Shown here: positions 16,797 to 52,363 of the stretch, piece after piece
How positions within the stretch are numbered: the first letter of the stretch is position 1
Layout of the letters: each line of letters opens with the position of its first letter
Assembly: GCA_034429135.1 (NCBI GenBank)
Contig: DAOUGR010000034.1
Coordinates: 12,503-76,502, forward strand
Reading direction: 5' to 3'
Source: Anaerolineaceae bacterium
GTDB lineage: Bacteria; Chloroflexota; Anaerolineae; Anaerolineales; Anaerolineaceae
Length of the DNA stretch: 64,000 nucleotides
Made by a program: the position numbers and the translations under genes
Notes under the pieces: generated by a model
What the model was told of the DNA's origin: nothing
Seen by the model: only the letters and a program-made list of their open reading frames with translations
The model's database searches: none

Positions 16797-16900
16797 TGAT
16801 ACATCCTCCAAAAAGATACAAATTCTCGCAGACAATTGTCAGACACCTTGTCTGTATTGTCAAGATTATGAAAATAACGATTTATGATGATAACTTAAGA

Positions 16901-20558: not shown

Positions 20559-20595
20559 CGGTATCCAGATCGCCAATTCATACCCGAAACACAGA

Positions 20596-20928
20596 TTATT
20601 GTACCTGTTCTATCCTCTGATCCAAGAACGGGTTGTCATCTGTACGCAGTAAGGCTTTTACCCAGATAGATTCATCAATTGAGGACTTGTTAAGGTGTAA
20701 AGTGAAATTCATCTGACGGATACAAACGCCCAGGATAACGGCGTGCGCGAGTTCAATGTTATCTTGATCGACCAGCGATAGTTCCACGTTGGGTTTTTGG
20801 CTGACATCTGATAATTCGAACTCCACACGCACCCGCTTGCGATCTTCAAAAAATTTCCCTGAAAGGGAAACGACTTCAGGTGCCGCAGGAGAAGATTCAG
20901 GATGGTTGTTCTGAGCGTTATCCGCCAT
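20596..20928 (-). CDS. Hypothetical small cytoplasmic protein
   Basis: 110-aa ORF with no signal peptide and no recognisable motif. It lies 14 nt downstream of the DUF1015-like gene on the same strand. Confidence 0.4.
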   Translation of the reverse strand: MADNAQNNHPESSPAAPEVVSLSGKFFEDRKRVRVEFELSDVSQKPNVELSLVDQDNIELAHAVILGVCIRQMNFTLHLNKSSIDESIWVKALLRTDDNPFLDQRIEQVQ

Positions 20929-36113: not shown

Positions 36114-36944
36114 ATGGAAAAAAACCGACTGGATATAGAAATGGAGGAGCGCGGACTGGTTCAGAGCCGTTCACTGGCCCAAAAATTAATTATGGCAGGC
36201 GATGTGCGGGTAAACGGCCAAATTGTTTTGAAACCCGCTGTTAAAGTAACCCATGCCGATCAAATTGATTTGTTGGAAGCGCCTAGATTTGTCTCGCGCG
36301 GCGGTGAAAAACTGGTGGCGGCGCTTGAGGCGTTTGGATTAACGGATCTGACGGGGCGTGTCTGTGTTGATGTTGGGGCAAGCACTGGCGGGTTCACGGA
36401 TTGCCTGCTGCAGCATGGAGCCAGGAAGGTTTATGCCGTCGATGTGGGCTATGGCGTGCTGGACTGGAAGATCAGGAATGATCAGCGTGTGGTGGTCATG
36501 GAACGTACCAATGCCAGATACATCACGGGATTCGATGATCGAATCGAGCTGGTCACTGTTGACGCTTCGTTTATTTCATTATCGATTCTGCTTCCGGCAA
36601 TCAGAAGCTGGTTTGGAGACCTACCGGCAGAAGTGGTGGCATTGATCAAACCCCAGTTTGAAGCCGGGCGCGCGGATTCAGCCAAGGGCGGCGGGGTGAT
36701 TCGTGACCCCAAAATTCACCGGGCTGTACTCGAGCGCACCCTGGAGTTCGCTCAGAATACGAATTTTGAAATAATGGGATTGATTCAATCACCTTTGACA
36801 GGCCCCAAAGGGAATATTGAATTCTTGGTTTATTTATCCTATCCAAAGAAAAGTGATCGAGATCTAAATGAATTCATTACCCCTTTATTTGATTCTCACA
36901 AAGATGAACCTCTAAACCAGGCTTCGGATTCAATAATGAAATAA
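36114..36944 (+). CDS. tlyA: TlyA-family rRNA (cytidine-2-prime-O)-methyltransferase
   Basis: N-terminal S4 domain ([31 protein letters not shown]), SRGGEKL, and the SAM motif [15 protein letters not shown]. Confidence 0.85.
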
Positions 36945-36963
36945 GGTATACTTTACACCGATT

Positions 36964-38763
36964 ATGCCAGCTGATACGATTCGAAATTTTTGTATTATTG
37001 CACATGTGGATCATGGAAAATCCACACTTGCTGACCGCATGCTCCAGCTTACGGGAACAGTACCTGACCGGGAAATGATGGAGCAGGTGTTGGATACGAT
37101 GGAACTTGAGCGTGAGAAGGGGGTTACGATCAAGGCCTCCGCTGTGCGCATGAAATACCCTTATAAGGGAAAAGAGTACGAGTTAAATTTAATTGATACG
37201 CCAGGGCATGTTGACTTTAATTATGAAGTCAGCCGCGCGCTGGAAGCCTGCGAAGGGGCACTGCTGGTGGTAGATGCAACGCAAGGGGTTGAAGCGCAGA
37301 CACTTGCCAACCTGTACCTGGCCCTGGAGTCAAACCTGACGATTTTACCGGTGATCAATAAAATCGACCTTGCTTCTGCTCGTCCAGACGAAGTTGCAGG
37401 CGAGATCGAAGCCCTGCTGGGAATACCTGCTGATTCAATCCTCAGAGTATCAGCCAAGGAAGGAATCAACATCGATAAGGTGTTGGATGCGATTGTTGAT
37501 CAGATTCCTCCTCCAAAAGGGGATGAAAAAGCCCCGCTGCAGGCGTTGATCTTTGACAGTCATTATGATTCTTATAAAGGTGTCGTGGCTTATATCAGAG
37601 TAGTGGAAGGAACCCTGCAAACCGCTGACACCTTGCGTTTGATGGCTACCCGGGCAGATGTAAAACCGGTGGAAATCGGTGTTTTTGCGCCGGGAATGGT
37701 GCCAGTTAATGAACTCAGAGCCGGAGATGTTGGTTATGTGGCGACGGGACTCAAAACGGTGAAAGAATGCCGTGTTGGTGACACTTTTACCCTTGCCGCT
37801 CAACCGGCTGAATTGCCACTTCCAGGTTACAGACACCCAAAACCGATGGTCTTTGCAGGTATTTACCCTGTTGAGGGGGAAGACTACGAAGAGTTGAAGG
37901 AAGCACTGGAAAGGTTGCAGCTGAATGATGCTTCTCTCGTTTTCGATCCTGAAACATCTCAGGCGTTGAATTTTGGTTTTCGCTGTGGTTTTCTTGGGCT
38001 CTTCCACATGGAAATCATTCAGGAGCGGATCGAGCGTGAGTACAATCTGAATATTGTGGTGACCGCTCCATCAGTCGAATATGAGGTTGTACTGCTCAAC
38101 GGTGAAACGGTATCCATTTCTTCGCCGGCAAAACTGCCAGATGAATCTCAAATCGCCGAGGTTCGCGAACCCTGGATGCGTCTGGAAGTGATCACGCCGA
38201 CCGAATTCTATGGAACGATCATGGACCTTGTCACCAAGCGCCGGGGAACCTATATCTCGCAGGATTACCCTGCACCTAATCGGGTTCAGTTGAATTATGA
38301 CATTCCGCTTTCGGAACTGATTGTTGATTTCTTTGATGATCTTAAATCGCGCACTCGCGGATACGCATCAATGGATTACCATTTTCTGGACATGCGCCCA
38401 GGAAACCTGGTAAAACTTGAAGTTTTGGTCGATTCTGAACCTGTGGATGCGCTGGCTGCCATTGTTCATAAAGAGGATGCCTATCATAAAGGTCAGGCGT
38501 TGGTGACAAAACTGAAAGCGTTAATTCCGAGACAGATGTTTGATGTGGCTATTCAGGCTTCTGCCGGCGGACGGGTCATCTCACGCGCCAACGTGAAAGC
38601 GCTGCGCAAAGATGTGCTGGCAAAATGTTACGGGGGTGATATTACCCGTAAAAAGAAACTGCTTGAAAAGCAGAAGAAGGGTAAACGCCGCATGAAGATG
38701 GTTGGCGATGTGGAAATTCCACAGGAAGCTTTCATGGCCGTTCTACGGTTGGAGGAAGATTGA
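36964..38763 (+). CDS. lepA: Elongation factor 4 (LepA)
   Basis: [28 protein letters not shown] and NKIDL. LepA-specific C-terminal domain ([25 protein letters not shown]). Confidence 0.95.
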
Positions 38764-39785
38764 CCGTAAACCACTCTCCAAAAATGAAGACTTTATTGCG
38801 CTGGTTACCGGGGGTGATGATCAGCGCGATTGCAATCTATGCGGTCATTCATTTTTCCAGGATGCAGGACTTCCACGCGGCTTTGAAAACCGTAACTCTT
38901 AAGTATGTGGTCATGATTACCATGCTTTCATTACTTAGCCTGCTGGTCAGGGCAATTGCCTGGCGCACGATTCTGGGTGATCAAATCAGTTTGGTCAATT
39001 CTTTTTTTGGAATTAATGAAGGATATTTCTTAAACAATCTTTTCCCACTTCGTGCGGGAGAGATCGGACGTGCGTTGTCGGTTGGGCAGTCTTCTGGGTT
39101 AGGTACGTTGCATGTTTTGTCAACCATACTGATTGAACGGGCATTTGATCTTGTTTTTGCTGCCGGAATTGCATTGATCACCCTTCCGTTTATCGTGGGC
39201 TCAGAATGGATCAAACCGATTGCGTTTTCAGCTTTTGTTATCGTCATTTTAGGTCTGATCTTGTTGTTTCTCGTTGCCAACAACCGCCAAAAAATCCAGG
39301 TATGGATTGATAAGAAGGGTTTTAAATCCAGATTCCTTGTTGAGCGTGTGCTCCCACAGATTCATAAACTCATCGATGGCATGACTGCATTGGTCAAGCC
39401 TTCCCGTTTTTTGTTGAGCTTCTTCTGGATTGGGATGACCTGGGTGGTGTGGATGTTCTTTTATTATTCAACCGTTGCTCAATTGGCGAATGGCGCACCA
39501 TTATGGTGGGGAGCATTTGTGTCTAGCCTTTTGGCGTTAGGTGTGGCAATTCCCTCAGCACCTGCGGCTGTAGGGGTATATGAGGCCGCAATTGTTGGTT
39601 CGTTGGCTCTACTTGGGATATCCAGCAGCTCGGCTCTGGCTTTTGCTATCGTCATGCATCTGGATCAAATGGTTATTACAGCGATATTTGGATTGTGGGG
39701 CTTAATTCGTGACGGACAGAGTCTGTCAGGTTTGCTTGCATCACTATCCGACAAAAAACTGGCGGAAAAGAAGCCAGTACAATGA
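38760..39785 (+). CDS. UPF0104 / lysylphosphatidylglycerol-synthase-TM-region (flippase-like) membrane protein
   Basis: About 8 TM helices. [24 protein letters not shown] matches the conserved N..P.R.GE..R box of this family. The TTG start overlaps the lepA stop; an ATG 8 codons in (38784) is an alternative. Confidence 0.65.
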
Positions 39786-39795
39786 GGAGTAAACA

Positions 39796-40821
39796 ATGAA
39801 CGGTTATTTACTAATCACCGGAGGTGCCGGTTTCATCGGGTCGAATTACGCTGCACGGTGCCTTGCGCGCGGTGAAAAAGTCGTAATTTTCGATAATCTC
39901 TCAAGACACGGCGCGGAGCTTAATATTGAATGGTTGAGTGACCGCTTTGACCGGAAATCCTTTGATTTAATCAAAGAAGACATCCGGGATGCCGACGCGA
40001 TAAAGGCTGCTGCAAAGGGAGCGGACCGCATTCTGCATCTGGCTGCCCAGGTTGCTGTGACAACGTCGGTTACCGATCCAAAAACCGATTTTGAGATCAA
40101 CGCTCACGGCACGTTTAATGCCCTGGAGGCTGCGCGTGCTTCTGGGAGAAAGCCTGCTTTTGTGTACGCTTCGACCAATAAAGTCTATGGCGGTATGGAA
40201 GATGTGGAAGTGGTTGAACTGGAATCCCGCTATGACTACAAGGATTTACCTTACGGGGCATCTGAGGCACAGCCGTTGGATTTTCATTCTCCTTATGGCT
40301 GCTCAAAAGGCTGCGGTGATCAGTATGTTAGAGATTATCACCGAATCTATGATCTGCCCACAGTGGTACTGAGGCAGTCGTGCATCTACGGCACACGCCA
40401 ATTTGGTATCGAAGACCAGGGGTGGGTTGCCTGGTTCATCATTGCTGCTGTTACTGGCAGGCCGATCACCATTTATGGCAACGGCAAGCAGGTGCGAGAT
40501 GTGTTATTCGTGGATGATCTGCTCGATGCTTATGATGCGGCTTTCCAGCGCGCTGACAAAGTTGGCGGACAGATCTTTAACATTGGCGGCGGAAGAGAAA
40601 ACACAATTTCTGTCTGGAAGGAATTTCAGCCAAAGCTCGAAAAACTGATTGGGCACCCTGTTCCAACCCAGATAAAGGGATGGCGCCCTGGTGACCAACC
40701 GGTCTACATTTCTGATATCCGTAAGGCCAAGGAAATGCTTGGCTGGGAACCGAAGATCAAGACCGATGCAGGAATCCGCCGATTATTCGATTGGGTTAAT
40801 GAAAATCGGAACCTGTTCTGA
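39796..40821 (+). CDS. SDR-family NAD-dependent sugar-nucleotide epimerase/dehydratase
   Basis: ITGGAGFIGSNY Rossmann motif, STNKVYG and the catalytic YGCSK. GAGGAG RBS. Confidence 0.85.
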   Translation: MNGYLLITGGAGFIGSNYAARCLARGEKVVIFDNLSRHGAELNIEWLSDRFDRKSFDLIKEDIRDADAIKAAAKGADRILHLAAQVAVTTSVTDPKTDFEINAHGTFNALEAARASGRKPAFVYASTNKVYGGMEDVEVVELESRYDYKDLPYGASEAQPLDFHSPYGCSKGCGDQYVRDYHRIYDLPTVVLRQSCIYGTRQFGIEDQGWVAWFIIAAVTGRPITIYGNGKQVRDVLFVDDLLDAYDAAFQRADKVGGQIFNIGGGRENTISVWKEFQPKLEKLIGHPVPTQIKGWRPGDQPVYISDIRKAKEMLGWEPKIKTDAGIRRLFDWVNENRNLF

Positions 40822-41978
40822 TGAAAATATTGATTGTTCTGACATATTACCGCCCGCATATCAGTGGTTTAACAATATATGCAGAGCGCATTGCAACAGC
40901 ACTTGCGAGGCGCGGTCATGATGTGACGGTTTTAACTTCTCAGTTTGATTCAACACTACCTCTTGAAGAAATGATGGAGGGAGTGCGAATTATCCGCGTG
41001 CCGGTTTTGATGCGGTTGAGTAAAGGCGTGATCATGCCGAAATTTGGTTATCTGGCCAGCAAGCTGGTGAAAGAAAACGATGTTGTTCAACTCCATCTGC
41101 CGCAATTCGATGCAGCGGGTGTGGCGCTGCGTGGAAGGTTGTTAAGGAAGCCAACGGTGATCACGTATCATTGTGATTTACAGCTTCCACCCGGATTGTT
41201 CAACAGAGCAGCAAACATCGCTGTTTTATTGATGAACGATCTCGCTGCTCGTTTCACTCACCGAATCGTTACTTATACCGACGATTATGCCCGGCATTCG
41301 AAGTACACCAGACGATTCATGAGAAAAGTTCAGGTAATCGCCCCGCCTGTGGTTTTACCAGAAATTTCTGAAACCCAAAAAAGCGAATTCGGCCTGAGGT
41401 ATAACCCGAAAGGACAACGCCCGGTGATTGGAATGGCGGCGCGATTTGCCACAGAGAAGGGCGTCGAAATCTTATTAAAGGCAATGCCTGCAATCATCGA
41501 GCGCCATCCCGACGCGCTTTTCCAATTTGTTGGGCCTTACCAGCATATTATTGGTGAAGAACAATATTTTGCACGACTTAAACCTGAAATCGAAAAATTT
41601 GAGCGCTCAGGCAACTGGAAATTCCTCGGATCGATGTCTCCAGAGCAGATGTCTGGTTTTTATGCCAACCTTGACTTACTGGTACTTCCCAGCCTCAATT
41701 CGACTGAAGCATTTGGCCTGGTTCAAATTGAAGCCATGATGAATGGCGTGCCCTGTGTTACCTCTAATCTGCCGGGTGTGCGGCAGCCGGTCACTGTTCA
41801 TGGAATGGGAGAAATCTTTGCCATTGGAGATTCGAAAGAATTGGCAGACAAAGTGTTAGCGGTTCTAGATAATATTGAAGCGAAACGTGTTCCAAAGGCG
41901 GATTTCTCGCGCTATTCACCTGATCTGATTGCGCAAAAATATGAAGAGTTATTCGAAAAAATTAAACTTGAGCTCTAA
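40821..41978 (+). CDS. Glycosyltransferase family 4 (GT-B fold)
   Basis: MKILIVLTYYRPHISGLTIY N-terminus. C-terminal EAFGLVQIEAMMNGVPCV (E-x7-E motif). The start overlaps the upstream stop (TGATG). Confidence 0.85.
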   Translation: MKILIVLTYYRPHISGLTIYAERIATALARRGHDVTVLTSQFDSTLPLEEMMEGVRIIRVPVLMRLSKGVIMPKFGYLASKLVKENDVVQLHLPQFDAAGVALRGRLLRKPTVITYHCDLQLPPGLFNRAANIAVLLMNDLAARFTHRIVTYTDDYARHSKYTRRFMRKVQVIAPPVVLPEISETQKSEFGLRYNPKGQRPVIGMAARFATEKGVEILLKAMPAIIERHPDALFQFVGPYQHIIGEEQYFARLKPEIEKFERSGNWKFLGSMSPEQMSGFYANLDLLVLPSLNSTEAFGLVQIEAMMNGVPCVTSNLPGVRQPVTVHGMGEIFAIGDSKELADKVLAVLDNIEAKRVPKADFSRYSPDLIAQKYEELFEKIKLEL

Positions 41979-42013
41979 TTTATAACCAGGAGCTGATTTT
42001 CTGGAGTATCGAC

Positions 42014-45000
42014 GTGTCTACCGATCATAACAATGTTCCTTCAAAGATGAAGCATCGTAAAAATTCCCCTCTAAATTTGCCTTGGGTCTGGGATGTGCTG
42101 TTGATTGGCATCCTGCTGATGGGTGCTTATTTACGTTTTACTGGAATTGAGTGGGACGGTAATCAGCACCTGCACCCCGATGAGCGATTTTTAACCATGG
42201 TAGAAACGTCTATCAAACCGGTAGACACCTTGCGCGAGTATTTTGACACTGCCAGTTCATCCTTGAACCCCAATAATTTCGGGTACACATTTTATGTGTA
42301 TGGTACGCTGCCGATTTTCATCGTCCGCTACGTGGGTGAATGGTTTGGTCAAACGGGGTATGATCAAATTAATATCGTTGGCCGGGTGCTGTCAGGTATA
42401 TTTGACCTGGGTACGCTGGTATTTGTTTATCTGATTGGCAAGCGACTTTATCGCAACTCCAGGCTTGGTTTGCTTGCCACGCTTTTTTCAGCTTTTGCGG
42501 TTCTTCAGATTCAGCTTTCACATTATTTTACGGTTGATAATTTTGCGAATTTCTTTACTTATGGCGCAATATACATTGCGGTATGCATCGCTACGCGCGC
42601 CAAACCTTTGATCGATCAACCATATTCTGAAGAAGATGGAAAAACTCCAGCATGGTTGACCAGTAACTGGTCTTCCTTCGGCCTCTTCGCCCTTTTCGGA
42701 TTGCTCTACGGGATGGCAATGGCCTCCAAAGTCAGTATCTGGGCGTTAGCTTTGTTGCTTCCTTTGGCGGCATTCCTCTATTACAGGAAGTCAGCGGTCA
42801 ACCATGACCAAACCGAAATTGCGATTATCATTCGCAATCTGGTTTTAGCCGGTATCGTTGCCTTTTTTACCTTCCGTATCTTCCAGCCATATTCTTTTAT
42901 GGGGCCAGGATTCCTGGGCATGAAGATAAATGAAAATTGGCTGGCAAGCATGCGCGAACTGGCTGCCATTCAAAGCGGTGATGTCGATGTTCCTTACGCA
43001 CTGCAATGGGCACGCCGCCCGGTGACATTCACGCTGCAGAACTACGTTCTCTGGGGTGTGGGAATTCCTTTGGGGCTGCTCAGCATTGGCGGTTTGCTCT
43101 GGATGGCGTGGCGTTCGATTAAGGGTGATTGGCCAAAGCATATTTTGCTCTGGAGCTGGGTTGCCTTTGTGTTGATCACACAATCATTGAGTCCGGTCAA
43201 AAGTATGCGCTACATCGTCTCCATCTATCCAGGCCTGGCGCTGATAGCATCCTGGACTATCTTTAAGTTAATGGAAAACAACGGAAAACAAGTTCGCAAG
43301 CTGAGAGTGATCGCTTTTAACTGGCGTAAGGCGTTGGCTGTGACGCTGCTGGTGATCACGATCACTGGCACTATGATCTATGCAATCGCTTTTACAGATA
43401 TTTATTCCAAGCCGGTTACCAGAGTGGCTGCCAGTGAATGGATTTATGAAAACATTCCGGGTGCGATCAACCTTTCTTTCACATCATCAACCACAAACGA
43501 GAAATTTACTCAACCACTGGCATACCAAAATTCGGCATTGATTGCATCTGATACGCCGTATGCTTATGGTTTCACAGCCGTAGACTCTGGCAAATTGACA
43601 ACCGTCACGATTGAGCATGTGCAAACCCAATCTTCTGATGCAGCTGTAACATCGTTAATTGCCACACTTTATGAAATCAATGGCGACGAAAGGAATTATC
43701 GAGCAGCTGGATTCTATCAATCCACTTTCGCTCAAAGCAGTGATGGGCGCGGTGAGAAGGCTGTCATCGCACTGGAAGGAGCTGCAGACCTTTACGCTGG
43801 GAAACAGTATGAGTTATTCATTGAGGTTGCAGAACCTTCTGTCTTCTTGCGCATTTCAGGATCTGTCATTCTGACTTATGGTGAGGGCAGCGGCTCATCG
43901 GTACAATATCTTGCATCTCCTGTCTATCGATTAACCAGCGCAAATGCCTTTCAAACCATTATTTATCCTCGTGAATCAGGCGAACTTTCAACAATCACGT
44001 TGAACCGGGTGGTTGACCTGCTCGGAACTCCTGGTGAAAAAACGTTAACCGTTAATCTGATTGATCCCAACAATCCCGAAGCCGGACTGGCTTCAGGCAG
44101 TGTAACGGGAACATTTCTGCCCAAAGACGATCCACGGGGTGAATCTGTAACCATCACTCTTAATAAGCCAGTAGGGCTTGAAAAATCGACCGGATATACA
44201 CTTGGCCTGACCCTTACCGGTGAAGGAGCATTGGGTATCTATAACGATACCACCGCGGTGGAGTCGTCATGGGACGATGCTTTGCCGGTAAGTATGTATG
44301 GTTATAACCAGTTCGGTTACTGGGATGGCATATACGGCAACAACCGCAATATGGAATTGTATTGGGATGACAATGAGGACAAATATTCTTCATTAACTTT
44401 AAACCTGGACCAAACGGATGCAATTTTCATTAGTTCCAGCCGCCAGTGGGGATCGATCACGCGCATACCGGAGCGGTATCCGTTAACCACAGAGTATTAC
44501 AGGGCTTTGATTGGCTGTCCAAAGGATAAAGATATCCTCTGGTGCTATTCTGTGGCCAAGCCGGGTATGTTTAAAGGTGAACTCGGATTCGACCTCGTTG
44601 CTGTATTTCAAAATGACCCGCAAATCGGGAATATTAAATTCAATGATCAATTTGCTGAAGAAGCCTTTACCGTTTATGACCATCCAAAGGTTTTGATTTT
44701 TCACAAAACGGATGACTATGACAGCCAGAAGGTACGTGAGATTCTTGGAGCCGTCGACCTTACAGCAGCAGTACATCTGACACCAAGTGAAGCAAGCAGC
44801 TTTCGTGGTAATTTAAAGTTGACTCCAGAAGGAAAAGAAATTCAACAAGCGGGGGGGACCTGGTCAGAGCTGTTCCCGGCAGCGTCAATTTTGAATCAAA
44901 AACCCTGGGCGGCAGCAGTGGTTTGGTATCTGGCCATCACGCTGCTGGGATGGCTCGTTTATCCATTAACACGTGTTTTCTTAAAGGGTTTGCCTGACCG

Positions 45001-47341
45001 CGGATATGCTTTTAGCCGTCTGACCGGTTTGATCCTACTCGCCTATTTCACATGGCTGGTAGCCTCACTTGGAGGATCTTTCAACCGCTTAACCATCGGA
45101 GTTGTGTTAACTCTGTTAACTGCAGCTAGTGTTGTGGTGTTTTGTTTGCAGCGTAAAGAAATAACAGCAGAAATCAAATCTCGTGGGAAATATTTTCTGC
45201 TGGTTGAAGGGGTTATGCTCGCTTTCTTCCTGTTAGATCTGGCCATTCGAATCGGTAACCCCGATCTGTGGCACCCCTGGAAGGGCGGGGAAAAACCGAT
45301 GGACCTTTCTTATTTCACTGCGGTTCTCAAGAGTACCACTTTTCCACCATATGACCCCTGGTATGCGGGTGGGTATATCAATTATTACTATTATGGATAT
45401 GTCATTGTTGGCGTACTGGTCAAGTTCCTGGGGATTATTCCTGATATCGCATATAACCTGATCTTGCCAACTTTGTTCGGCCTGACCGGTGTGGGTGCAT
45501 TCGGAATCGGTTGGAATCTGTTCACCCATCATGAAATTGACCCGGTGAACGGAATTCAAGCGGAATCGCTATCTGGAAATAAACGCTCACTTTTTGCTGG
45601 CGTTACCGCTGCTTTCGCTGTATTGATCATGGGAAACCTGGGAACGGTGCGAATGTTCTGGCAGGGGTTACAGAGAATTGCGGCTCCAGATGGGATTATT
45701 GATGGCGCAGGAATTTTCGAACGGATCAAGTGGGTGGTGTTGGGATTAGGCAAGTTCTTTACCGGGACGAAGATGCCTTATGGATACGGCGATTGGTACT
45801 GGAATCCATCACGCGCTATCCCTGGAGAGGTGATCACGGAGTTTCCCTTTTTCACTTTTACCTATGCAGACCTGCACGCTCACATGATCGCGCTGCCGAT
45901 CACTCTGCTTGTTCTGGGGTGGGCGGTTTCTATGTTGCTCCGAAAGGCTGATTGGGAAGCCGGTCTGGGAAATAAGAAGTGGATTCCCCTTTTGGGGTCA
46001 CTTCTTTTTGGTGGATTGATCATTGGCACCTTGAGACCGACGAACACATGGGATCTGCCAACTTATCTTGTGTTTGCTTCAGCAGTTCTTCTGTATGTTT
46101 GCTGGAAGTACGCCTCACTGCCTCGAAAATTCTTTTCCTCATTACCGGTTTGGTTAAGAAAACTCATTTTTTGCGGGCTGGTGATCGCTGTTTTCGTGGG
46201 ATCTGTACTGGTGTCCTTCCTGCCCTTTACAGAAAAATACGGTCAGGCTTATGGTTCTATGACCTCATGGAAGGGTGATTATACCCAACTGAAAGATTAC
46301 CTCGTCCACTGGGGGTGGCAGCTTTTCTTGATCACCACCTGGCTGGTGTGGGAAACCCGCGAATGGCTCGCTGCAACACCGGCTTCAGTGCTAAAACGTT
46401 TTAAGCCGTATCTTGGCTATTTGCAGGTAGTGGTGGTGTTATTCGCAGCGGTCTTGATCCTGTTAACTTTGCTGGGCGTAAAAATTGGCTGGATCGTAGG
46501 AATCCTGGGTGTATGGGCGTTGATATTAATGCTCAGATCCAACCAACCAGATTTAAAGCGGCTGGTTCTCTTCATGGTGGGCACTGGTTTAATCTTGACG
46601 CTTTTTGTGGAGTTATTTGCGCTGGCGGGTGATATCGGGCGCATGAATACAGTCTTCAAATTCTATTATCAGGCATGGACCATGTTAGGGCTCAGCGCAG
46701 CTGCTGCGCTGGTGTGGTTGACCCCTGCCGTGACCACACGTTGGAAGCCGGGTGTTTCAAATGTATGGCAAATCCTCTTTGCGCTATTGGTGTTTGGAGG
46801 GTTGCTTTACCCGGTCACAGCTGCGATAGATAAAATTCGAGATCGTATGTCTGACCAGGCTCCTGCGGGATTGGATGGAACAGTCTATATGAGAACCTCC
46901 ACATATTCAGATGAAGGAGTGGAGATGCATCTCGATGAAGATTACCAGGCAATCCAGTGGATGCGTGAGAATGTTAAGGGATCACCTGTCATCGTGGAAG
47001 CCAATACGGTGGAATATCGCTGGGGGAACCGATTTACGATCTACACCGGGCTGCCGGGTGTCCTTGGCTGGAACTGGCACCAACGTCAGCAGCGTGGGTA
47101 CATGGATTACAATGGCATTCAGAGCAGATTGACTGAAATCCCGTATTTTTACGAAACCACTTTGATTAATGATGCAGTGGAATTTCTTAAAAAGTATGAT
47201 GTGAAATACATCATCCTGGGACAGTTGGAACGTGCATACCACTCAGGTATTGGGTTGGACAAATTTGAACAGTATGATGGTGTCTATTGGAAAGAAGTCT
47301 TTCGTCTGAATGACACTGTCATTTACGAAGTCATCCCATAG
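42014..47341 (+). CDS. Giant (1775 aa) polytopic membrane protein with two Chlor_Arch_YYY/DUF2298-type modules separated by a large extracytoplasmic domain
   Basis: More than 25 hydrophobic segments. Module 1 has HPDERFLTMVETSIK...NPNNFGYTFYVYG. Module 2 has GGEKPMDLSYFTAVLK...DPWYAGGYINYYYYGY. GTG start with GGAG 8 nt upstream. Confidence 0.8.
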   Translation: MSTDHNNVPSKMKHRKNSPLNLPWVWDVLLIGILLMGAYLRFTGIEWDGNQHLHPDERFLTMVETSIKPVDTLREYFDTASSSLNPNNFGYTFYVYGTLPIFIVRYVGEWFGQTGYDQINIVGRVLSGIFDLGTLVFVYLIGKRLYRNSRLGLLATLFSAFAVLQIQLSHYFTVDNFANFFTYGAIYIAVCIATRAKPLIDQPYSEEDGKTPAWLTSNWSSFGLFALFGLLYGMAMASKVSIWALALLLPLAAFLYYRKSAVNHDQTEIAIIIRNLVLAGIVAFFTFRIFQPYSFMGPGFLGMKINENWLASMRELAAIQSGDVDVPYALQWARRPVTFTLQNYVLWGVGIPLGLLSIGGLLWMAWRSIKGDWPKHILLWSWVAFVLITQSLSPVKSMRYIVSIYPGLALIASWTIFKLMENNGKQVRKLRVIAFNWRKALAVTLLVITITGTMIYAIAFTDIYSKPVTRVAASEWIYENIPGAINLSFTSSTTNEKFTQPLAYQNSALIASDTPYAYGFTAVDSGKLTTVTIEHVQTQSSDAAVTSLIATLYEINGDERNYRAAGFYQSTFAQSSDGRGEKAVIALEGAADLYAGKQYELFIEVAEPSVFLRISGSVILTYGEGSGSSVQYLASPVYRLTSANAFQTIIYPRESGELSTITLNRVVDLLGTPGEKTLTVNLIDPNNPEAGLASGSVTGTFLPKDDPRGESVTITLNKPVGLEKSTGYTLGLTLTGEGALGIYNDTTAVESSWDDALPVSMYGYNQFGYWDGIYGNNRNMELYWDDNEDKYSSLTLNLDQTDAIFISSSRQWGSITRIPERYPLTTEYYRALIGCPKDKDILWCYSVAKPGMFKGELGFDLVAVFQNDPQIGNIKFNDQFAEEAFTVYDHPKVLIFHKTDDYDSQKVREILGAVDLTAAVHLTPSEASSFRGNLKLTPEGKEIQQAGGTWSELFPAASILNQKPWAAAVVWYLAITLLGWLVYPLTRVFLKGLPDRGYAFSRLTGLILLAYFTWLVASLGGSFNRLTIGVVLTLLTAASVVVFCLQRKEITAEIKSRGKYFLLVEGVMLAFFLLDLAIRIGNPDLWHPWKGGEKPMDLSYFTAVLKSTTFPPYDPWYAGGYINYYYYGYVIVGVLVKFLGIIPDIAYNLILPTLFGLTGVGAFGIGWNLFTHHEIDPVNGIQAESLSGNKRSLFAGVTAAFAVLIMGNLGTVRMFWQGLQRIAAPDGIIDGAGIFERIKWVVLGLGKFFTGTKMPYGYGDWYWNPSRAIPGEVITEFPFFTFTYADLHAHMIALPITLLVLGWAVSMLLRKADWEAGLGNKKWIPLLGSLLFGGLIIGTLRPTNTWDLPTYLVFASAVLLYVCWKYASLPRKFFSSLPVWLRKLIFCGLVIAVFVGSVLVSFLPFTEKYGQAYGSMTSWKGDYTQLKDYLVHWGWQLFLITTWLVWETREWLAATPASVLKRFKPYLGYLQVVVVLFAAVLILLTLLGVKIGWIVGILGVWALILMLRSNQPDLKRLVLFMVGTGLILTLFVELFALAGDIGRMNTVFKFYYQAWTMLGLSAAAALVWLTPAVTTRWKPGVSNVWQILFALLVFGGLLYPVTAAIDKIRDRMSDQAPAGLDGTVYMRTSTYSDEGVEMHLDEDYQAIQWMRENVKGSPVIVEANTVEYRWGNRFTIYTGLPGVLGWNWHQRQQRGYMDYNGIQSRLTEIPYFYETTLINDAVEFLKKYDVKYIILGQLERAYHSGIGLDKFEQYDGVYWKEVFRLNDTVIYEVIP

Positions 47342-47352
47342 ACTGGCAGGGC

Positions 47353-49935
47353 ATGATGGCAGATCTCCTTCACCTGATTAGCTGGTATCTCATTATTTCT
47401 CTGGTTGGTTTAGCAGCCTTGCCAATCGGATATCGTTTCTTTTCGCGTTTGCCGGGAAGGGGGATAACCCTGGCACGTCCTTTAGGGTTGCTGTTGTGGG
47501 GATTTCTCTTCTGGCTTTTGGCTTCTCTGGGAGTACTGCAAAACGATCTGGGTGGTGTGTTGCTGGCATTTGTTTGCCTGGCGGCCATCAGTTTGTGGGC
47601 AGGCACAGGCGGAAGGTTCCATGATTTATACCTATGGATTAAACAAAACTTACGGTTGGTGCTAACATCTGAGGGTTTGTTCCTGGTTGCATTTGTAGGT
47701 TGGGCAATCATTCGCGGTATGAATCCCGAAGCAGCCTACACAGAAAAACCGATGGAGCTGGCTTTCATCAACTCGATCCTGCGCTCTCCAAGCTTTCCTC
47801 CGCAGGATCCATGGCTTTCGGGTTACGCCATTTCATATTATTACTTTGGTTATGTATTGATTGCTATGATCACCCGGGTTTCGGGTGTGGCATCTTCTAT
47901 TGCTTTTAACTTGAGCAGTGCCTTATGGTTTGCTCTTACCGCCTCAGCCCTCTATGGCATCGTGCACGATCTCGTTCTCACATGGCTCGAAAGTAAACCG
48001 GGGAAACAGGAAAGTGCCGCGCGTAAGTATGCCGCCCGCGCATCCGGTTTTCTAGGTCCGCTCTTTGTCTTGATTGCTAGCACGTACGAAGGCGTGCTGG
48101 AATTTCTACATTCTGGGGGAGTTTTCTGGCATCAGACGGCTGATGGGGTCTGGGAATCTAAGTTCTGGAGCTGGCTGGCCATATCTGATCTGGATGAAGC
48201 GCCGATATCACCATTCAACTGGATTCCATCGCGCGGTGGTTGGTTGTGGTGGAGAGGATCCAGGGTTTTGCAGGATCTGAGCCTTTCGAACACTAAGATC
48301 GAAGTCATTGATGAGTTTCCATTTTTCTCATATTTGCTCTCCGATTTACATCCGCATGTGTTGGGTATGCCGTTCGTTTTACTCGCCCTGGGTGTTAGTC
48401 TCAATTTATTCCTTGGTTCAGATCAATTTTTTTCAAAGTTTCACAGCATTCAAAGCTGGATGCGAAACTGGTCGTTCTGGTTGACCGCATTGATTTTGGG
48501 CAGTCTGGCATTTATCAATACGTGGGATTTTCCAATTTATGTTGGTTTATTCTGTTTTATCTGGGGCTATGTTCGTTACCGGCGGAATGGTTGGAACTGG
48601 AAGATATTCTGGGAATTGATCAAGAATGGATTAATCCTCGGAGTAACCGGGATTTTCCTGTTCTTACCGTTTTACATTGGCTTTGCTTCTCAGGCTGGCG
48701 GCATTTTACCATCTCTGGAATACATGACCCGCGGGATTCATTTCTGGATCCTGTTCGGGGTGCTTTTGGTGCCAATTTTTATCTGGCTGGTTTACAAAAT
48801 CACCAAGGCCAAAGATCCAGCCAATTTGAAAAAAGGGCTGATCTTTACCAGCATTATTTTTATTGGCTTATTCTTGTTGATGACCCTGTACGGAGCGTTT
48901 GCTTTTGGATTGTCAGGTATGGGATCGTCGCTAGTTGAATCATCAAATTACTTTGTCTCCCGCCTGGGATCAAGGATGATCATGGGAGGCGAAGCCTTTA
49001 CCAGCCTGCATGGGAGTAATCAGTTTTCAGAAGTAATCCGGGCGACCATACTGCGAAGAGCGCAATCTCCGGGAACCTGGTTGACACTTGGAGTCATGTT
49101 GTTAATGACATTGGCATTGCTGATTTCACGCCAACAGAATCAGGTTGAAGAAACCACTCAGCCAGCCACTGATGAGATTGCCATAAAGAAGCCAGAAGCT
49201 GAACATTTCGTTCTAATTCTTGTCCTTTTCGGGCTTACGCTAACGATCTTTCCTGAATTCTTTTATCTGCGAGATCAATTCGGCTGGCGCATGAATACGA
49301 TCTTCAAGTTTTACTTTCAGGCCTGGATCCTGTGGGGAATAGCGGCAGCCATCGCGAGCGCGTGGCTCTTTCGGTCTCTTGCCCGGTGGAAAGGTTTTCT
49401 CTATCAAATGGCCTGGATTGTCTCACTCATTGCCGGGCTTGCATACCCGCTGTTAATGTTATGGAATAAAACGGAAAAATTTTCTTTCGTGAATTGGACG
49501 CTAGATGGTAATGCTTATTATGCTGAATACTACCCTGATGATTACGATGCCATCGTTTGGCTTCAAAATGCGCCATTGGGGATTGTAAGTGAAGCGGTTG
49601 GAGGAAGTTACACAGAATACGCGCGAGTTTCAACGCGCTCTGGGCAGCCGACTGTGCTCGGTTGGCCAGGACATGAGAGCCAATGGCGCGGGGGCGCAGC
49701 AGAAATGGGTTCCAGGTTTGAGGACATGCAGAGACTGTATGAAACGAAATCATGGGAGACAGCAGCCGCGATCATTGAAGCATACGATATTCGATATATT
49801 TATATCGGTGGGCTGGAGTGGTCTACCTATGCGGTCAATATCGAAAAATTTGATCAGATGCTTGAACCCGTTTACAATAATCAGAGTGTTGTGATCTATG
49901 AAGTGCCATCTGATCTTGGAGATCTCAACCCATGA
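47353..49935 (+). CDS. Chlor_Arch_YYY/DUF2298 family polytopic membrane protein (860 aa)
   Basis: YTEKPMELAFINSILRSPSFPPQDPWLSGYAISYYYFGY. Clear paralogy to module 2 of the upstream protein, for example LPGRGITLARPLGLLLWGFLFWLLASLG vs LPDRGYAFSRLTGLILLAYFTWLVASLG. The C-terminal VLGWPGHESQWRG box is shared. Confidence 0.8.
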   Translation: MMADLLHLISWYLIISLVGLAALPIGYRFFSRLPGRGITLARPLGLLLWGFLFWLLASLGVLQNDLGGVLLAFVCLAAISLWAGTGGRFHDLYLWIKQNLRLVLTSEGLFLVAFVGWAIIRGMNPEAAYTEKPMELAFINSILRSPSFPPQDPWLSGYAISYYYFGYVLIAMITRVSGVASSIAFNLSSALWFALTASALYGIVHDLVLTWLESKPGKQESAARKYAARASGFLGPLFVLIASTYEGVLEFLHSGGVFWHQTADGVWESKFWSWLAISDLDEAPISPFNWIPSRGGWLWWRGSRVLQDLSLSNTKIEVIDEFPFFSYLLSDLHPHVLGMPFVLLALGVSLNLFLGSDQFFSKFHSIQSWMRNWSFWLTALILGSLAFINTWDFPIYVGLFCFIWGYVRYRRNGWNWKIFWELIKNGLILGVTGIFLFLPFYIGFASQAGGILPSLEYMTRGIHFWILFGVLLVPIFIWLVYKITKAKDPANLKKGLIFTSIIFIGLFLLMTLYGAFAFGLSGMGSSLVESSNYFVSRLGSRMIMGGEAFTSLHGSNQFSEVIRATILRRAQSPGTWLTLGVMLLMTLALLISRQQNQVEETTQPATDEIAIKKPEAEHFVLILVLFGLTLTIFPEFFYLRDQFGWRMNTIFKFYFQAWILWGIAAAIASAWLFRSLARWKGFLYQMAWIVSLIAGLAYPLLMLWNKTEKFSFVNWTLDGNAYYAEYYPDDYDAIVWLQNAPLGIVSEAVGGSYTEYARVSTRSGQPTVLGWPGHESQWRGGAAEMGSRFEDMQRLYETKSWETAAAIIEAYDIRYIYIGGLEWSTYAVNIEKFDQMLEPVYNNQSVVIYEVPSDLGDLNP

Positions 49936-51632
49936 GCATCGAAACAATGCAATCACGTAAAGTTTCTTTAGAATATGCAGTTTATGCATTCATCCTGGTT
50001 GCCGCATTGGCTTTCAGGTTTCTGGCATTGGGAATGACACCCCTCAACAATGACGAGGCTCATCTGGCAATTGAGGCTCTGAATGTATCCCGGGGCAACG
50101 AAGTTTCGATTTCTGGTCAACCCGGTTATGTTTCATTGACCTCAATTCTGTTTTCCATTTTTAGCGATTCCAATTTCTTTGCCCGGTTCTGGCCGGCGTT
50201 AATCGGGTCGCTGCTGGTGCTGCTTCCTGTGCTTTTCCGCGATCAGGTTGGAAAGAACACCGCGCTTATCCTTTCTCTGTTATTGGCTTTTGATCCGTTT
50301 TTAATCACGATCTCCCGCTCAGCCAACGGGGGGATTTTTGCGCTCACTGGAGTAATGGCCGGAATCGGTTTCTGGCGGATTAAAAAGCCAGTTCTTGCCG
50401 GAATTGGCTTTGGCCTTGCTTTGCTGGGTGGTGTGGATCTCTGGGGTGGGTTGATGGCCATTGGATTGGCTTATCTTGCAACTTTTAAGATTCGAAAACA
50501 AGTTTTGAATGCAGAAAAAAATGAAAATCAGAAAAAACAAGTGAGAGTGGCCATCGTCAGCCTCTTGATTACTCTGATCGCTCTTGCAACCGTTTTTCTC
50601 ACTCGCCCGGCAATCATCAGTGCTGTTGGCTCGAGTCTTGTGGAATATATTCAGTCTTGGGGGGCAGCATTCACAATACCATTCACTTCGGCAGCATTTT
50701 TGTGGTTGCTGATTCAAATTCCTGTAATTGGGCTTGGACTCTGGGGGTTGTTGAGTGGGATTAAAAGAAATGACCCTAAAGTTGGTTTTCTGGGAATTTG
50801 GTGGGGAATTCAATTCGTGTTGTCTGTAATGAATCCTGCAAGGAACCTGGCTGAGTTGTTTTGGGTATCCCTGCCCATGCTGATTCTGGCTTCTATGGCT
50901 ATTGAAAAATTTTTCAACCAGCAAAAATCTGAAAATCGATGGGTATTCCTGGCTGAAATCGTTCTGGTGGTGGCTTTGTGCGTCTTTTCGTTGATGAACT
51001 TTACAGCGCTGGTAAATTCGAACAGTGTGGATGCTGAAACCATGCGGAATCGGATTATTGGAACGCTATTGCCACTCGTGCTGCTGGCCGTGGTCACACT
51101 GCTTTTTGCGTGGGGGTGGTCGCTGGTTTCCACCCGGCGTGGTTTCATCATAGGGCTTGGATTGATACTGTTCGCCGGTTGGTTTGGATCTTCCTGGAAG
51201 GCTGCAGACCTGGGCTCACGCCCCGAGTTTGAGTTTAAATTTGGTGGCGAGACACCAGTCGGGTCAGAAATCTTGTTATCATCCATATCTGACCTGTCAC
51301 GTTGGACAACCAGCCAGGCAAATCGCATCGATATTCAAATTGCAGGTCTAGAATTAGATTCGTTATCATGGGCTTTGAGAAATTTCGAAAATCTAAGACA
51401 TGAAACGAAATTTAATCCGAATTCGACATCGTCGATCATTTTGACTCCAGTTGAAACAGAAATTCAGGGCGTCAGTGCATATCGTGGACAAAAAATTCTC
51501 TGGTCGGCGAGGCCAGATTTTGCCGAGATGACACTTCGGGATTGGATGAAATGGGCACTCTTCAGGACGGGCCCTCAACAAGAAACTGAACTGGTCTTCT
51601 GGGCAAAGAACACCTTGTTTTTTGAGAATTAA
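49932..51632 (+). CDS. Polytopic membrane protein, PMT/ArnT-like (GT-C-type) candidate glycosyltransferase
   Basis: About 12 TM helices with a DE dipeptide in the first external loop (LNNDEAHLAIEAL). C-terminal approx. 170-aa soluble domain. ATGA overlap with the upstream YYY gene. The family assignment is tentative. Confidence 0.5.
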   Translation: MSIETMQSRKVSLEYAVYAFILVAALAFRFLALGMTPLNNDEAHLAIEALNVSRGNEVSISGQPGYVSLTSILFSIFSDSNFFARFWPALIGSLLVLLPVLFRDQVGKNTALILSLLLAFDPFLITISRSANGGIFALTGVMAGIGFWRIKKPVLAGIGFGLALLGGVDLWGGLMAIGLAYLATFKIRKQVLNAEKNENQKKQVRVAIVSLLITLIALATVFLTRPAIISAVGSSLVEYIQSWGAAFTIPFTSAAFLWLLIQIPVIGLGLWGLLSGIKRNDPKVGFLGIWWGIQFVLSVMNPARNLAELFWVSLPMLILASMAIEKFFNQQKSENRWVFLAEIVLVVALCVFSLMNFTALVNSNSVDAETMRNRIIGTLLPLVLLAVVTLLFAWGWSLVSTRRGFIIGLGLILFAGWFGSSWKAADLGSRPEFEFKFGGETPVGSEILLSSISDLSRWTTSQANRIDIQIAGLELDSLSWALRNFENLRHETKFNPNSTSSIILTPVETEIQGVSAYRGQKILWSARPDFAEMTLRDWMKWALFRTGPQQETELVFWAKNTLFFEN

Positions 51633-51658: not shown

Positions 51659-52363
51659 TTGACCACACCACTCTCATCCATCGTTATCGCCATTGACGGC
51701 CCTGCTGCATCTGGAAAATCAACACTGGCGGAAAAGCTGGCGAAACAATTAGGTTTTTTCTATTTTGACACAGGGGTCATGTATCGAGCAGTCACGCTGG
51801 CTGTGATCACACATGGCATTCATGTGGATGATGAGGAAGCAATCACAAGTTTGGCAAATGAAATCGACATTGATGTACAGCCTCCATCAAAGCAAGATGG
51901 ACGAATGATGGATGTGTTGGTTGATGGCAAGGATGTTACCTGGGAGATTCGCACCCCGGTTGTAGATCAAAATGTTTCGAAGGTTTCGGCCTATGCTGGG
52001 GTTCGCACGGCAATGACCAACCAGCAGCGCCGTATTGGATTGCGCGGTGATGTGGTGATGGTGGGGCGGGATATTGGAACGGTGGTTTTTCCGGATGCTG
52101 AATATAAGATTTACCTGGATGCATCGCCAGAAGAACGCGCAAATCGCCGGTATAAGGAAAAGATTGCCCGGGGAGAAAATGCTTCGTATGAAGAGATCTT
52201 AAGTTCGATCAAACGCAGAGATAAGATCGATTCCACGCGGACAATCGCACCATTAAAAGCCGCACAAGATGCGATCATCATTGACACCGACGGGAAAACC
52301 ATTGAAGAAGTACTGGAAGAAACCCTTTCACATTTACACATCAAACCCAAAAATGTTGGATAA
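51659..52363 (+). CDS. cmk: Cytidylate kinase
   Basis: IAIDGPAASGKST P-loop, FYFDTGVMYR and VMVGRDIGTVVFPDA. TTG start preceded by AGAGGAG. Confidence 0.9.
   Translation: MTTPLSSIVIAIDGPAASGKSTLAEKLAKQLGFFYFDTGVMYRAVTLAVITHGIHVDDEEAITSLANEIDIDVQPPSKQDGRMMDVLVDGKDVTWEIRTPVVDQNVSKVSAYAGVRTAMTNQQRRIGLRGDVVMVGRDIGTVVFPDAEYKIYLDASPEERANRRYKEKIARGENASYEEILSSIKRRDKIDSTRTIAPLKAAQDAIIIDTDGKTIEEVLEETLSHLHIKPKNVG

Follow-up and report, generated by a model that had tools for sequence, protein, structure and literature searches.

Described glycosyltransferase systems and the locus compared with them

In this study, we analysed a stretch of 64,000 nucleotides from an Anaerolineaceae bacterium (the whole of it is called the window below), in which six + strand open reading frames (ORFs), g1 to g6, encode proteins of 341, 341, 385, 1775, 860 and 566 aa. 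The C-terminal half of g4 (g4C) and the whole of g5 belong to the Chlor_Arch_YYY/DUF2298 family, referred to here as YYY. This family has long been in the catalogues, as has its pairing with TIGR03663, and the locus is an uncharacterised variant within the GT-C glycosyltransferases, not a new kind of system.

Both g4C and g5 match the family model TIGR03662 over its full length and contain the YYYxG motif. The TIGRFAMs description of TIGR03662, an N-terminal region followed by two YYY copies and TPR repeats, differs from the architecture found here, where a PMT-like module and a YYY module are joined in g4 and a separate YYY module follows in g5. The best structural match of the YYY model is the tryptophan C-mannosyltransferase DPY19 (7zli, 7zlg and 7zlh). 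Oligosaccharyltransferases (OSTs) have an acidic residue in external loop 1 and a DxD or DxH metal site in external loop 2, and the external-loop acid of YYY, together with a D-x-H-type motif in its next external loop, appears to parallel the metal site of STT3, AglB and PglB. The identity of YYY to DPY19 and the OSTs is ~10%, with TM-scores of 0.3-0.4 and no sequence-level relationship, and YYY differs from them in three extra N-terminal transmembrane helices and an N-out start. The OST motif WWD[YWN]G is absent from g4, g5 and g6; g4 has S-W753-D-D, and the YYY modules have G-W..H..Q.R.

The PMT and PMT_2 proteins (ArnT-like; GT39/GT83; PF02366 and PF13231) are comparable with the N-terminal half of g4 (g4N), which shares the D-E pair after the first transmembrane helix and whose modelled fold matches ArnT, Pmt4 and Pmt1/2. 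Both g4N and g6 of the window are under the Pfam thresholds and have no MIR domain, and g4N is set apart by its fusion with large beta-sandwich domains and with YYY as a second GT-C module. The closest named relative of g6 is Agl23 of Haloarcula hispanica: g6 and 28 relatives match TIGR03663, but g6 is under the cut-off and its HGP triplet is absent. The g6 gene adjoins a YYY gene in 56/69 loci, a pairing of TIGR03663 with TIGR03662 that is also noted in TIGRFAMs.

In the mycobacterial pathway, PimA acts first, its product is flipped and the GT-C enzymes PimE, Mpt, Emb and Aft follow, and the decaprenyl-phosphate phosphoribosyltransferase (DPPR synthase) is Rv3806c. The locus shares with this phosphatidylinositol mannoside, lipomannan, lipoarabinomannan (LAM) and arabinan pathway a PimA-like GT4 enzyme, GT-C modules similar to AftA and AftD, and, close by, a DPPR-synthase equivalog. 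Orthologues of DprE1/E2 and Emb are absent here, and the flippase candidate is a different one (similar to the membrane domain of MprF). The likeness is one of logic and not orthology.

Our results suggest, with a probability of roughly 0.62, that the locus is a constitutive extracytoplasmic glycan-assembly system of four GT-C-fold membrane modules, in which YYY/DUF2298 probably forms a new branch, within a known class of enzymes, that builds a cell-envelope glycan. What the data show directly is which genes are present, the families and folds assigned to their products, their invariant motifs and their synteny. The genes and modules are as follows.

38760-39785, +: g1, UPF0104, MprF-type flippase-like polytopic membrane protein without the synthase domain
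39796-40821, +: g2, NAD-dependent sugar-nucleotide epimerase, CDP-tyvelose 2-epimerase-like
40821-41978, +: g3, GT4 (GT-B fold) glycosyltransferase, predicted at the cytoplasmic face, PimA-like
42014-47341, +: g4, 1775 aa, consisting of the g4N module, external domains and a YYY module
42014-43453, +: g4N transmembrane module (g4 aa 1-480), PMT/ArnT/STT3-like GT-C module, not YYY
43466-44263, +: g4 aa 485-750, extracytoplasmic tandem beta-sandwich region
44351-44893, +: g4 aa 780-960, conserved extracytoplasmic alpha/beta domain, linker to the YYY module
44906-47341, +: g4C (g4 aa 965-1775), first Chlor_Arch_YYY/DUF2298 module
47353-49935, +: g5, second, stand-alone Chlor_Arch_YYY/DUF2298 module, GT-C fold
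49932-51632, +: g6, Agl23/TIGR03663-like, PMT/PIG-M-related polytopic protein with D41-E42, probable GT-C fold

An earlier note on this DNA had described six packed same-strand genes with the same coordinates and lengths, and its gene boundaries were confirmed: the junctions are TGATG at 40819-40823 and ATGA at 49932-49935, and the other gaps are 10, 35 and 11 nt. The six peptide motifs that it quoted were located at g4 aa 54/85 and 1091/1114 and at g5 aa 129/152.

YYY modules and the fused N-terminal half of g4

The assignment of the C-terminal half of g4 and of g5 to Chlor_Arch_YYY/DUF2298, already made in that note, stands well over the curated cut-offs. The TIGR03662 scores are 512.6 bits for g4 aa 965-1773 and 489.8 bits for g5 aa 5-851 (cut-off 300.25), and the PF10060 scores are 375 bits (8.8e-112) for g4C and 356 bits (4e-106) for g5 (cut-off 27.8). 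The two modules are clear paralogues (BLASTP 2.6e-51), and the YYYxG motif reads Y162-Y-Y-F-G in g5 and Y1124-Y-Y-Y-G in g4. The family is large: g5 by itself gave over 7,000 clusters at 90% identity.

In an alignment of 45 sequences from both paralogue groups, with 27-83% identity to g5, the residues E131, P133, M134, D152, P153, W154, Y162-164, E321, D331, H333, H335, R646, N648 and K652 (g5 numbering) were invariant, the YYY columns included (45/45), and position 135 was E or D in every sequence. All of the invariant residues are present in g4C. In g5 they lie in the motifs E131-K-P-M-E, D152-P-W, Y162-Y-Y, E321-F-P-F, D331-x-H-x-H335 and R646-M-N...K652, followed by the C-terminal motif G770-W..H..Q.R, of which G-W771..H774..Q777.R779 was kept in 44 of the 45 sequences. 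The set E131, D152, E321, D331, H333, H335, R646 and K652 offers direct targets for mutagenesis.

The AlphaFold2 (AF2) model of g5 (pLDDT 88.9, pTM 0.92) was compared with the PDB by Foldseek, and only DPY19 reached E<=1e-3 (1.4e-5 to 3.3e-5, probability 1.0), followed by the arabinosyltransferase AftA (2.9e-3, probability 0.98). The five best matches were all GT-C enzymes or OST domains, and unrelated membrane proteins had probabilities <0.12. The C-terminal domain of g5 was similar to the globular domain of archaeal AglB in a local match (probability ~1.0, TMt ~0.5, E 0.18-0.7). A GT-C fold is well supported for YYY by this modelled structure, which would place DUF2298/YYY in the GT-C superfamily, and a catalytic function is plausible.

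The topology, predicted from the positive-inside rule on the sequence and from the model helices, has an N-out start with four transmembrane helices before the external loop that holds E131...D152...YYY, and a second large external loop that ends in E321-F-P-F...D331-x-H-x-H335. By analogy with the OSTs, the active site is likely to consist of the invariant E131/E135/D152 loop and D331-x-H333-x-H335. It was proposed earlier that the large proteins carry a conserved acidic residue in external loop 1; this is the case for D56-E57 of g4N (18/18), whereas the E131/D152 loop of YYY (45/45) sits after the fourth transmembrane helix. The proposal that the large membrane proteins are GT-C proteins was borne out, for g5 and g4N by the matches of their models to GT-C enzymes and for the g6 family through TIGR03663 and PIG-M.

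The suggestion that the two giant proteins contain three copies of one module could not be upheld, since there are only two YYY modules, g4C and g5, and g4 aa 1-960 is unrelated to them in sequence. A third YYY copy was sought there in three ways and rejected: Pfam and NCBIfam gave no YYY/DUF2298 match even at E<=1, pairwise BLASTP of g4 aa 1-960 against g4C and g5 gave nothing significant, and local hhalign of clean g4N and YYY profiles, the latter limited to YYY-only columns, gave a probability of 2%. Homology between the C-terminal domain of YYY and the external domain at the C-terminus of g4N was rejected likewise (hhalign probability <1%). The alignment by eye of HPDERF...FYVYG with EKPM...YYYxG is coincidental.

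A different family emerged for this half of g4. A search with g4N returned 1,594 proteins, typically of ~1,650 aa and from Anaerolineae-type genomes, with precomputed Pfam PMT and/or PMT_2 domains N-terminal to DUF2298, and some of these homologues are publicly annotated as 'phospholipid carrier-dependent glycosyltransferase'. Among the 18 homologues that were aligned, Pfam PMT was matched in 11 and PMT_2 in 8; the window's g4N itself had no Pfam PMT (PF02366) or PMT_2 (PF13231) match at the gathering threshold. H54-P-D56-E57-R-F was invariant (18/18), and its D56-E57 is the Asp-Glu motif of loop 1 after the first transmembrane helix.

The AF2 model of g4N (pLDDT 80.2, pTM 0.78) consists of a transmembrane domain (aa 23-480), an all-beta region (aa 485-750) and an alpha/beta domain (aa 780-960). 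Foldseek found 22 matches at E<=1e-3 in the PDB, mostly to GT-C enzymes, which account for each of the thirteen best. AglB (2.6e-7), STT3 of yeast and human (1e-5), ArnT (3e-5), Pmt4 (TMt 0.55) and PglB were among them; ALG9 and AftD were just above E 1e-3, and AftA was also matched. The non-GT-C matches (phage baseplate proteins and SIDT1) fall on the beta-sandwich ectodomain. At the sequence level the g4N profile had no significant match in the PDB, and the GT-C relationship was seen through structure comparison only. Because g4N has no YYY match, has PMT/PMT_2 homologues and has GT-C structural matches, we conclude that g4 joins a PMT/ArnT/STT3-like GT-C module to external domains of ~480 aa and one YYY module, and that the locus has two YYY modules. 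The N-out start of YYY fits this fusion, in which the chain passes from the first module's external domain into YYY.

The external domains were also compared. The nearest structural matches of g4 aa 485-750 are local ones to baseplate and fibre proteins of phages phi812 and Douge and to SIDT1 ectodomains; its profile matched 9euf DUF4815 weakly, and DUF4082 or PHR occurs in a few homologues. These beta-sandwich domains may be carbohydrate-binding modules. The alpha/beta domain (aa 780-960) has many near-invariant residues, and W753-D-D just upstream of it is kept in 17/18 sequences.

The best structural matches of g4N, namely AglB, STT3, Pmt4 and PglB, are protein glycosyltransferases, and this raises a special case of the glycan-assembly reading, in which g4N glycosylates secreted proteins, for example at Thr/Pro-rich linkers, and YYY extends the glycan or glycosylates proteins itself. 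In its favour, YYY has the protein C-mannosyltransferase DPY19 as its best match, an AglB-like C-terminal domain, and G-W..H..Q.R (44/45) at the site where OSTs have WWDYG; moreover, four wall-associated proteins of the window have Thr/Pro linkers. On the other hand, WWDYG itself is absent from g4, g5 and g6, ArnT, AftA, AftD and ALG9, whose acceptors are lipids or glycans, are nearly as good matches, the AglB-domain match is a local one with E 0.18-0.7, and no MIR domain was detected by Pfam, unlike in eukaryotic PMTs. We regard a machine dedicated to protein glycosylation as possible, at about one chance in five by our judgement, and we retain the broader glycan-assembly reading in what follows.

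The g6 protein, the upstream genes and their conservation

For g6, TIGR03663 scored 58.5 bits (E 5.9e-16), and no Pfam match was found. A word-indexed search gave 78 relatives, and an exhaustive search gave 6,893 representative clusters at E<=1e-3. All of the 28 sampled family members matched TIGR03663 over most of the transmembrane region (best 7.6e-20), three of the 28 matched Pfam PMT, and the family profile matched the GT-C enzyme PIG-M at 4.7e-5, co-linear across 90 residues. A comparison of g6 with g4N by hhalign was co-linear across the DE region and not significant (E 0.014, probability 3%), and homology of the two is not claimed.

The TIGRFAMs description of TIGR03663 specifies an invariant DE dipeptide, an HGP tripeptide and two Arg residues. 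In g6 the HGP triplet is replaced (Q63-P-G-Y), and R29 and R85 are invariant. The DE dipeptide that had been noticed in the first external loop is present as D41-E42 after the first transmembrane helix, but across the family the motif is mostly D-x-E and not invariant, with D in 22/28, E in 25/28 and Q in 3/28.

A related gene was observed elsewhere. In more distant Anaerolineae loci (L072, L061, L069, L075 and L080), a second, larger g6-like gene encoding 1,050-1,160 aa lies downstream of g6, and the paralogue in L072 (15763-18984) exceeded the Pfam cut-offs for PMT_2 and PMT and has an NHL beta-propeller fused to it.

These data leave g6 as GT-C-like, with a probable GT-C fold judged from its family matches, and it may be a transferase or a translocation factor. 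In H. hispanica, Agl23 is described as a putative flippase for hexose-P-dolichol; after purification it flipped M5GN2-PP-Dol in liposomes, and it suppressed the yeast rft1 deletion (PMC11182771). It could thus be that g6, and possibly other modules, is a lipid-linked-sugar translocation factor like Agl23 or an inactive scaffold with a GT-C fold. The name of TIGR03663, 'flippase activity-associated protein Agl23', and the variability of the acidic motif (E to Q in 3/28) with the change from HGP to QPG agree with this, but the g6 score of 58.5 bits is below the cut-off of 126.25 bits, the family also matches the true transferases PIG-M and PMT, D-x-E is kept in most members, and the acidic and His residues of YYY and g4N are fully invariant, as expected of enzymes. 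We consider this explanation unlikely, at much the same level as dedicated protein glycosylation.

The family calls made earlier for the three upstream genes, a flippase-like protein, a short-chain dehydrogenase/reductase-type epimerase/dehydratase and a GT4 glycosyltransferase, agreed with our Pfam and TIGRFAM matches. The g1 protein matched PF03706 LPG_synthase_TM at 115.9 bits (3e-33; cut-off 33.4) and TIGR00374 at 70.8 bits (cut-off 43.2), and no sequence relative of it was found in the PDB. With 341 aa it has the flippase-like membrane domain only and no C-terminal aminoacyl-phosphatidylglycerol synthase domain, and it is by its family matches a UPF0104/TIGR00374 member, not MprF.

For g2, Pfam Epimerase and GDP_Man_Dehyd were matched, no NCBIfam equivalog was found at or above its cut-off, and the best PDB matches were 9rl0 (3.6e-97) and 1orr (1e-86) over the full length, with GalE types next at ~1e-40. 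By similarity, g2 is specifically CDP-tyvelose 2-epimerase-like, and it may be a general nucleoside diphosphate (NDP)-hexose C2-epimerase. No other genes of the 3,6-dideoxyhexose pathway occur near g2. A role as a polyprenyl-P-ribose 2-epimerase was considered and is not put forward for want of evidence.

The g3 protein matched Glycos_transf_1 (3e-30) and Glyco_transf_4 (1.5e-17) in Pfam, and its closest solved relatives are PimA structures (4n9w/2gej; 5e-11 over aa 12-361, nearly full length). PimA glycosylates a membrane lipid acceptor. To our knowledge, polyprenyl-phosphate-sugar synthases are GT2 enzymes (DPM1/Ppm1/ArnC/GtrB), not GT4. The earlier idea that the epimerase, the GT4 enzyme and the flippase-like protein supply and export the lipid-linked donor found no support, g3 being a GT4 enzyme closest to the lipid-acceptor enzyme PimA and not a GT2 enzyme. 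Building of a glycolipid or lipid-linked primer by g1-g3 is at least as likely as donor supply; the PimA-like logic and the GT2 nature of polyprenyl-P-sugar synthases make it more likely that g2, g3 and g1 provide and flip such a primer than a donor.

Conservation was assessed by a scan of one genome per GTDB species with two short peptide patterns, which gave at least 598 YYY-encoding stretches. The neighbourhoods were counted in the best 80 of these, all from Anaerolineae-type Chloroflexota, and only loci with enough flanking sequence were included in each count.

46/57 loci: g4-type YYY module directly upstream of the g5 orthologue
43 loci: g4-type YYY module in one ORF with a g4N module
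56/69 loci (3 more nearby): g6 directly downstream of g5
41/60 loci: cytidylate kinase gene (cmk) downstream of the triad
32/46 loci: g3 upstream of the core
19/46 loci: g2 upstream of the core
16/46 loci: g1 upstream of the core

The expected conservation of the neighbourhood was found for the g4-g5-g6 core across Anaerolineae-type genomes, but not to the same extent for g1-g3, which are less constant (16-32 of 46 loci). In Pfam-annotated contigs of relatives ~44% identical, genes for isopentenyl phosphate kinase, mevalonate kinase and UbiA are followed on the divergent side by tlyA-lepA-(g1)-g2-g3-(methyltransferase)-(extra 725-aa PMT_2)-g4-g5-g6-cmk-acyltransferase. The tlyA/lepA flank is kept in L003, L005, L006, L016, L029 and L087, and the UbiA/DPPR synthase gene is at the same divergent position in L087 and L089; L088 has kept only PMT_2-g4-g5-g6-cmk, without UbiA. 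At the core is the triad of GT-C genes, with four to five or more modules of this fold, within a housekeeping block, and YYY is found in this core block across Anaerolineae alongside two other GT-C lineages. The embedding of the triad among housekeeping genes argues for a constitutive envelope function.

Some variations were observed in these loci. An extra stand-alone PMT_2 gene (~725 aa) lies directly upstream of g4 in L087 (7102-9983), L089 (6922-9985) and L088 (7821-9998), and the window is without this gene; in two of these three loci an S-adenosylmethionine-dependent methyltransferase gene stands between g3 and the extra PMT_2, and none is present in the window. In L061 (5423-9874), g4 and g5 are split by an insertion encoding a GH88 glycoside hydrolase and a TIR-domain protein.

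In the window, the six genes had been taken for a self-contained operon, a view that did not hold because the lepA stop overlaps the TTG start of g1, cmk begins 26 nt after g6 and one strand is used throughout. The g1 start (TTGA) is preceded by a GGAGGA Shine-Dalgarno sequence 4 nt upstream (window 38751-38763), and one gene caller places the start at ATG 38784 instead. The overlap suggests translational coupling of a housekeeping GTPase gene with the envelope cluster. A consensus scan for promoters and terminators found none in the intergenic gaps, with counts near the shuffle expectation. The adjoining and nearby genes are the following.

33425-35187, -: isopentenyl phosphate kinase and mevalonate kinase (NF040647 172.5 bits, cut-off 120; TIGR00549 258.9 bits, cut-off 163)
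35195-36067, -: UbiA-family decaprenyl-phosphate phosphoribosyltransferase (DPPR synthase) equivalog (NF008977 273.5 bits, cut-off 234)
36114-38763, +: TlyA-like rRNA methyltransferase (Pfam FtsJ and S4) and LepA (EF4; GTP_EFTU and LepA_C)
51659-52363, +: cytidylate kinase, cmk (Cytidylate_kin 3.5e-75), 26 nt 3' of g6

Proposed assembly route and its alternatives

We propose the following route for the glycan-assembly system, which covers the enzymatic activity, the donor, the acceptor, the order of steps and the roles of g1-g3. At the cytoplasmic face, g2, as an NDP-hexose 2-epimerase type, would provide the sugar nucleotide, g3 would load the sugar onto a membrane-lipid or lipid-linked primer, and g1 would carry the g3 product outward. 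At the membrane's outer face, the catalytic modules would each transfer a sugar from a polyprenyl-phosphate-linked donor to an envelope acceptor that grows in this way; a glycolipid, a glycopolymer of the wall and a secreted Thr/Pro-rich protein are possible acceptors. The polyprenyl-phosphate-sugar donors are probably made elsewhere, and the neighbouring DPPR synthase is one candidate source.

Several observations support this reading. The positive-inside rule and the model helices place the invariant acidic and His residues outside the membrane, and the topology of g4 is coherent, with the external domain of g4N leading into the N-out YYY module. A DUF2298 gene also occurs in a polysaccharide cluster on a plasmid of Bacillota, and an LCP ligase and Thr/Pro-linker proteins are present in the same window.

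Other findings weigh against it. The GT-C matches of g5 have modest TM-scores (0.32-0.42; 0.2-0.42 across the top five, with E 1.4e-5 to 2e-2), and the link of YYY to GT-C is structural only, as the YYY profile found no sequence match in the PDB, YYY members showed no recurrent weak matches to other GT-C Pfam families, and hhalign gave no profile-profile link of YYY to g4N or g6. The g6 protein is under the TIGR03663 cut-off, its acidic motif is not invariant, and the only studied TIGR03663 member, Agl23, was reported as a flippase or flippase-associated protein and not as a transferase. No GT2 polyprenyl-P-sugar synthase or initiating phosphoglycosyltransferase was present in the annotated 8-57 kb of the window, which covers ~30 kb upstream and 5 kb downstream, g1-g3 are absent beside the core in many genomes, and part of the synteny may be incidental, as the cluster lies among housekeeping genes. 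In the literature we found no functional or structural paper on DUF2298/TIGR03662/YYY and no YYY member with a demonstrated activity.

The isoprenoid and wall genes noted earlier as context were confirmed, since the DPPR synthase, mevalonate kinase, isopentenyl phosphate kinase and LCP genes were all over the curated cut-offs. The DPPR synthase gene lies 3 kb upstream of the cluster in an operon with the two kinase genes, and it hints at polyprenyl-P-ribose-type donors outside Actinobacteria in this metagenome-assembled genome (MAG) of Chloroflexota. An LCP transferase gene is ~30 kb and a ManC-like guanylyltransferase gene ~11 kb from the cluster.

This context allows for a synthase of wall or membrane glycopolymers that draws on polyprenyl-phospho-pentose donors with the logic of mycobacterial arabinan and LAM. 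The DPPR synthase would provide polyprenyl-P-ribose or a derivative, g3 and g1 would make and flip a glycolipid anchor, the GT-C modules would polymerise the glycan outside, and LCP would ligate it to peptidoglycan. The UbiA protein is over the DPPR-synthase equivalog cut-off and its position beside the cluster is kept in L087 and L089, YYY matches AftA, g4N matches AftD and AftA, g3 is PimA-like and an LCP gene is within the window. Against this, the window has no DprE1/DprE2-type epimerase (none in the annotated 8-57 kb) and no DPPR phosphatase, the UbiA gene runs on the other strand with mevalonate-pathway genes as its operon partners, tlyA and lepA stand between it and g1, L088 has the GT-C core without UbiA, and the LCP gene is ~30 kb off. 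In addition, our literature search on DPPR and arabinan found nothing tying Chloroflexota to such polymers. Both this explanation as a whole and the sequence of steps just given seem to us improbable, a little more so than the two alternatives discussed above.

A further view, which we hold to be similarly improbable, is that YYY is an unrecognised lineage of OST/DPY19-like GT-C enzymes, which together with the PMT-like and Agl23-like modules forms the core machine for the principal envelope glycoconjugate of Anaerolineae and some Archaea. Its basis is the external-loop acid with the putative D-x-H-x-H metal site and the AglB-like C-terminal domain, in which G-W..H..Q.R would replace WWDYG. 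Such a machine might carry out a new type of protein glycosylation, or it might make a wall polymer that depends on polyprenyl-P-pentose from the adjacent DPPR synthase. If the relationship to OST and DPY19 were true, the enzymes that use lipid-linked donors to glycosylate proteins or walls would gain a new branch.

The model of the earlier note, in which three YYY modules act on a polyprenyl-phosphate-sugar donor made and exported by the epimerase, the GT4 enzyme and the UPF0104 protein, is very improbable: the gene order with its stop/start overlaps suggests co-expression, and the layout is similar to three-component systems of a cytoplasmic glycosyltransferase, a flippase and a GT-C enzyme, such as GtrB/GtrA/GtrC and CsbB/GtcA/YfhO, but it is already partly refuted by the finding of two YYY modules only by BLASTP and hhalign, the known polyprenyl-P-sugar synthases are GT2 and not GT4, the nearest solved g3 relative has a lipid as its acceptor, g1 shows no relationship to the flippases GtrA and ArnE/F, and g1-g3 are missing beside the core in many genomes. 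The ideas of a triple YYY repeat and a GT4-made donor are thus corrected. The structural placement of YYY and its core gene block together offer an entry point into the poorly known chemistry of the envelope in filamentous Chloroflexota, a group common in digesters, sediments and wastewater.

Secreted proteins with Thr/Pro linkers, said earlier to be many, number 4 of the 43 ORFs. They are four wall-associated proteins (LCP, LysM, Ig-like and M23 peptidase; 7777-8907, 14239-15000, 16107-16838 and 19704-20609), and their Thr/Pro-rich linkers are candidate O-glycosylation sites. A 357-aa ORF at 30645-31718 (+), 3' of the topoisomerase I gene, had no Pfam or NCBIfam match.

Outside Chloroflexota, the plasmid pNP95 of Pseudobutyrivibrio xylanivorans, a rumen Bacillota (L085, 61332-81482), carries a single-domain DUF2298 gene inside a polysaccharide cluster with two GT2 genes, a DegT aminotransferase gene, a gene for a glucosyltransferase-domain protein, an O-antigen-ligase-family gene and an NDP-sugar epimerase/dehydratase gene. 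This carrier could be a tractable system for studying the YYY family. The only archaeal match in the annotated collections was on a Halarchaeum megaplasmid, where it crosses the origin of the record and carries no annotation. Two further records, a contig of the uncultured MAG GCA_964544995.1 and a JGI metagenome contig that shares the gene order, are identical to the window.

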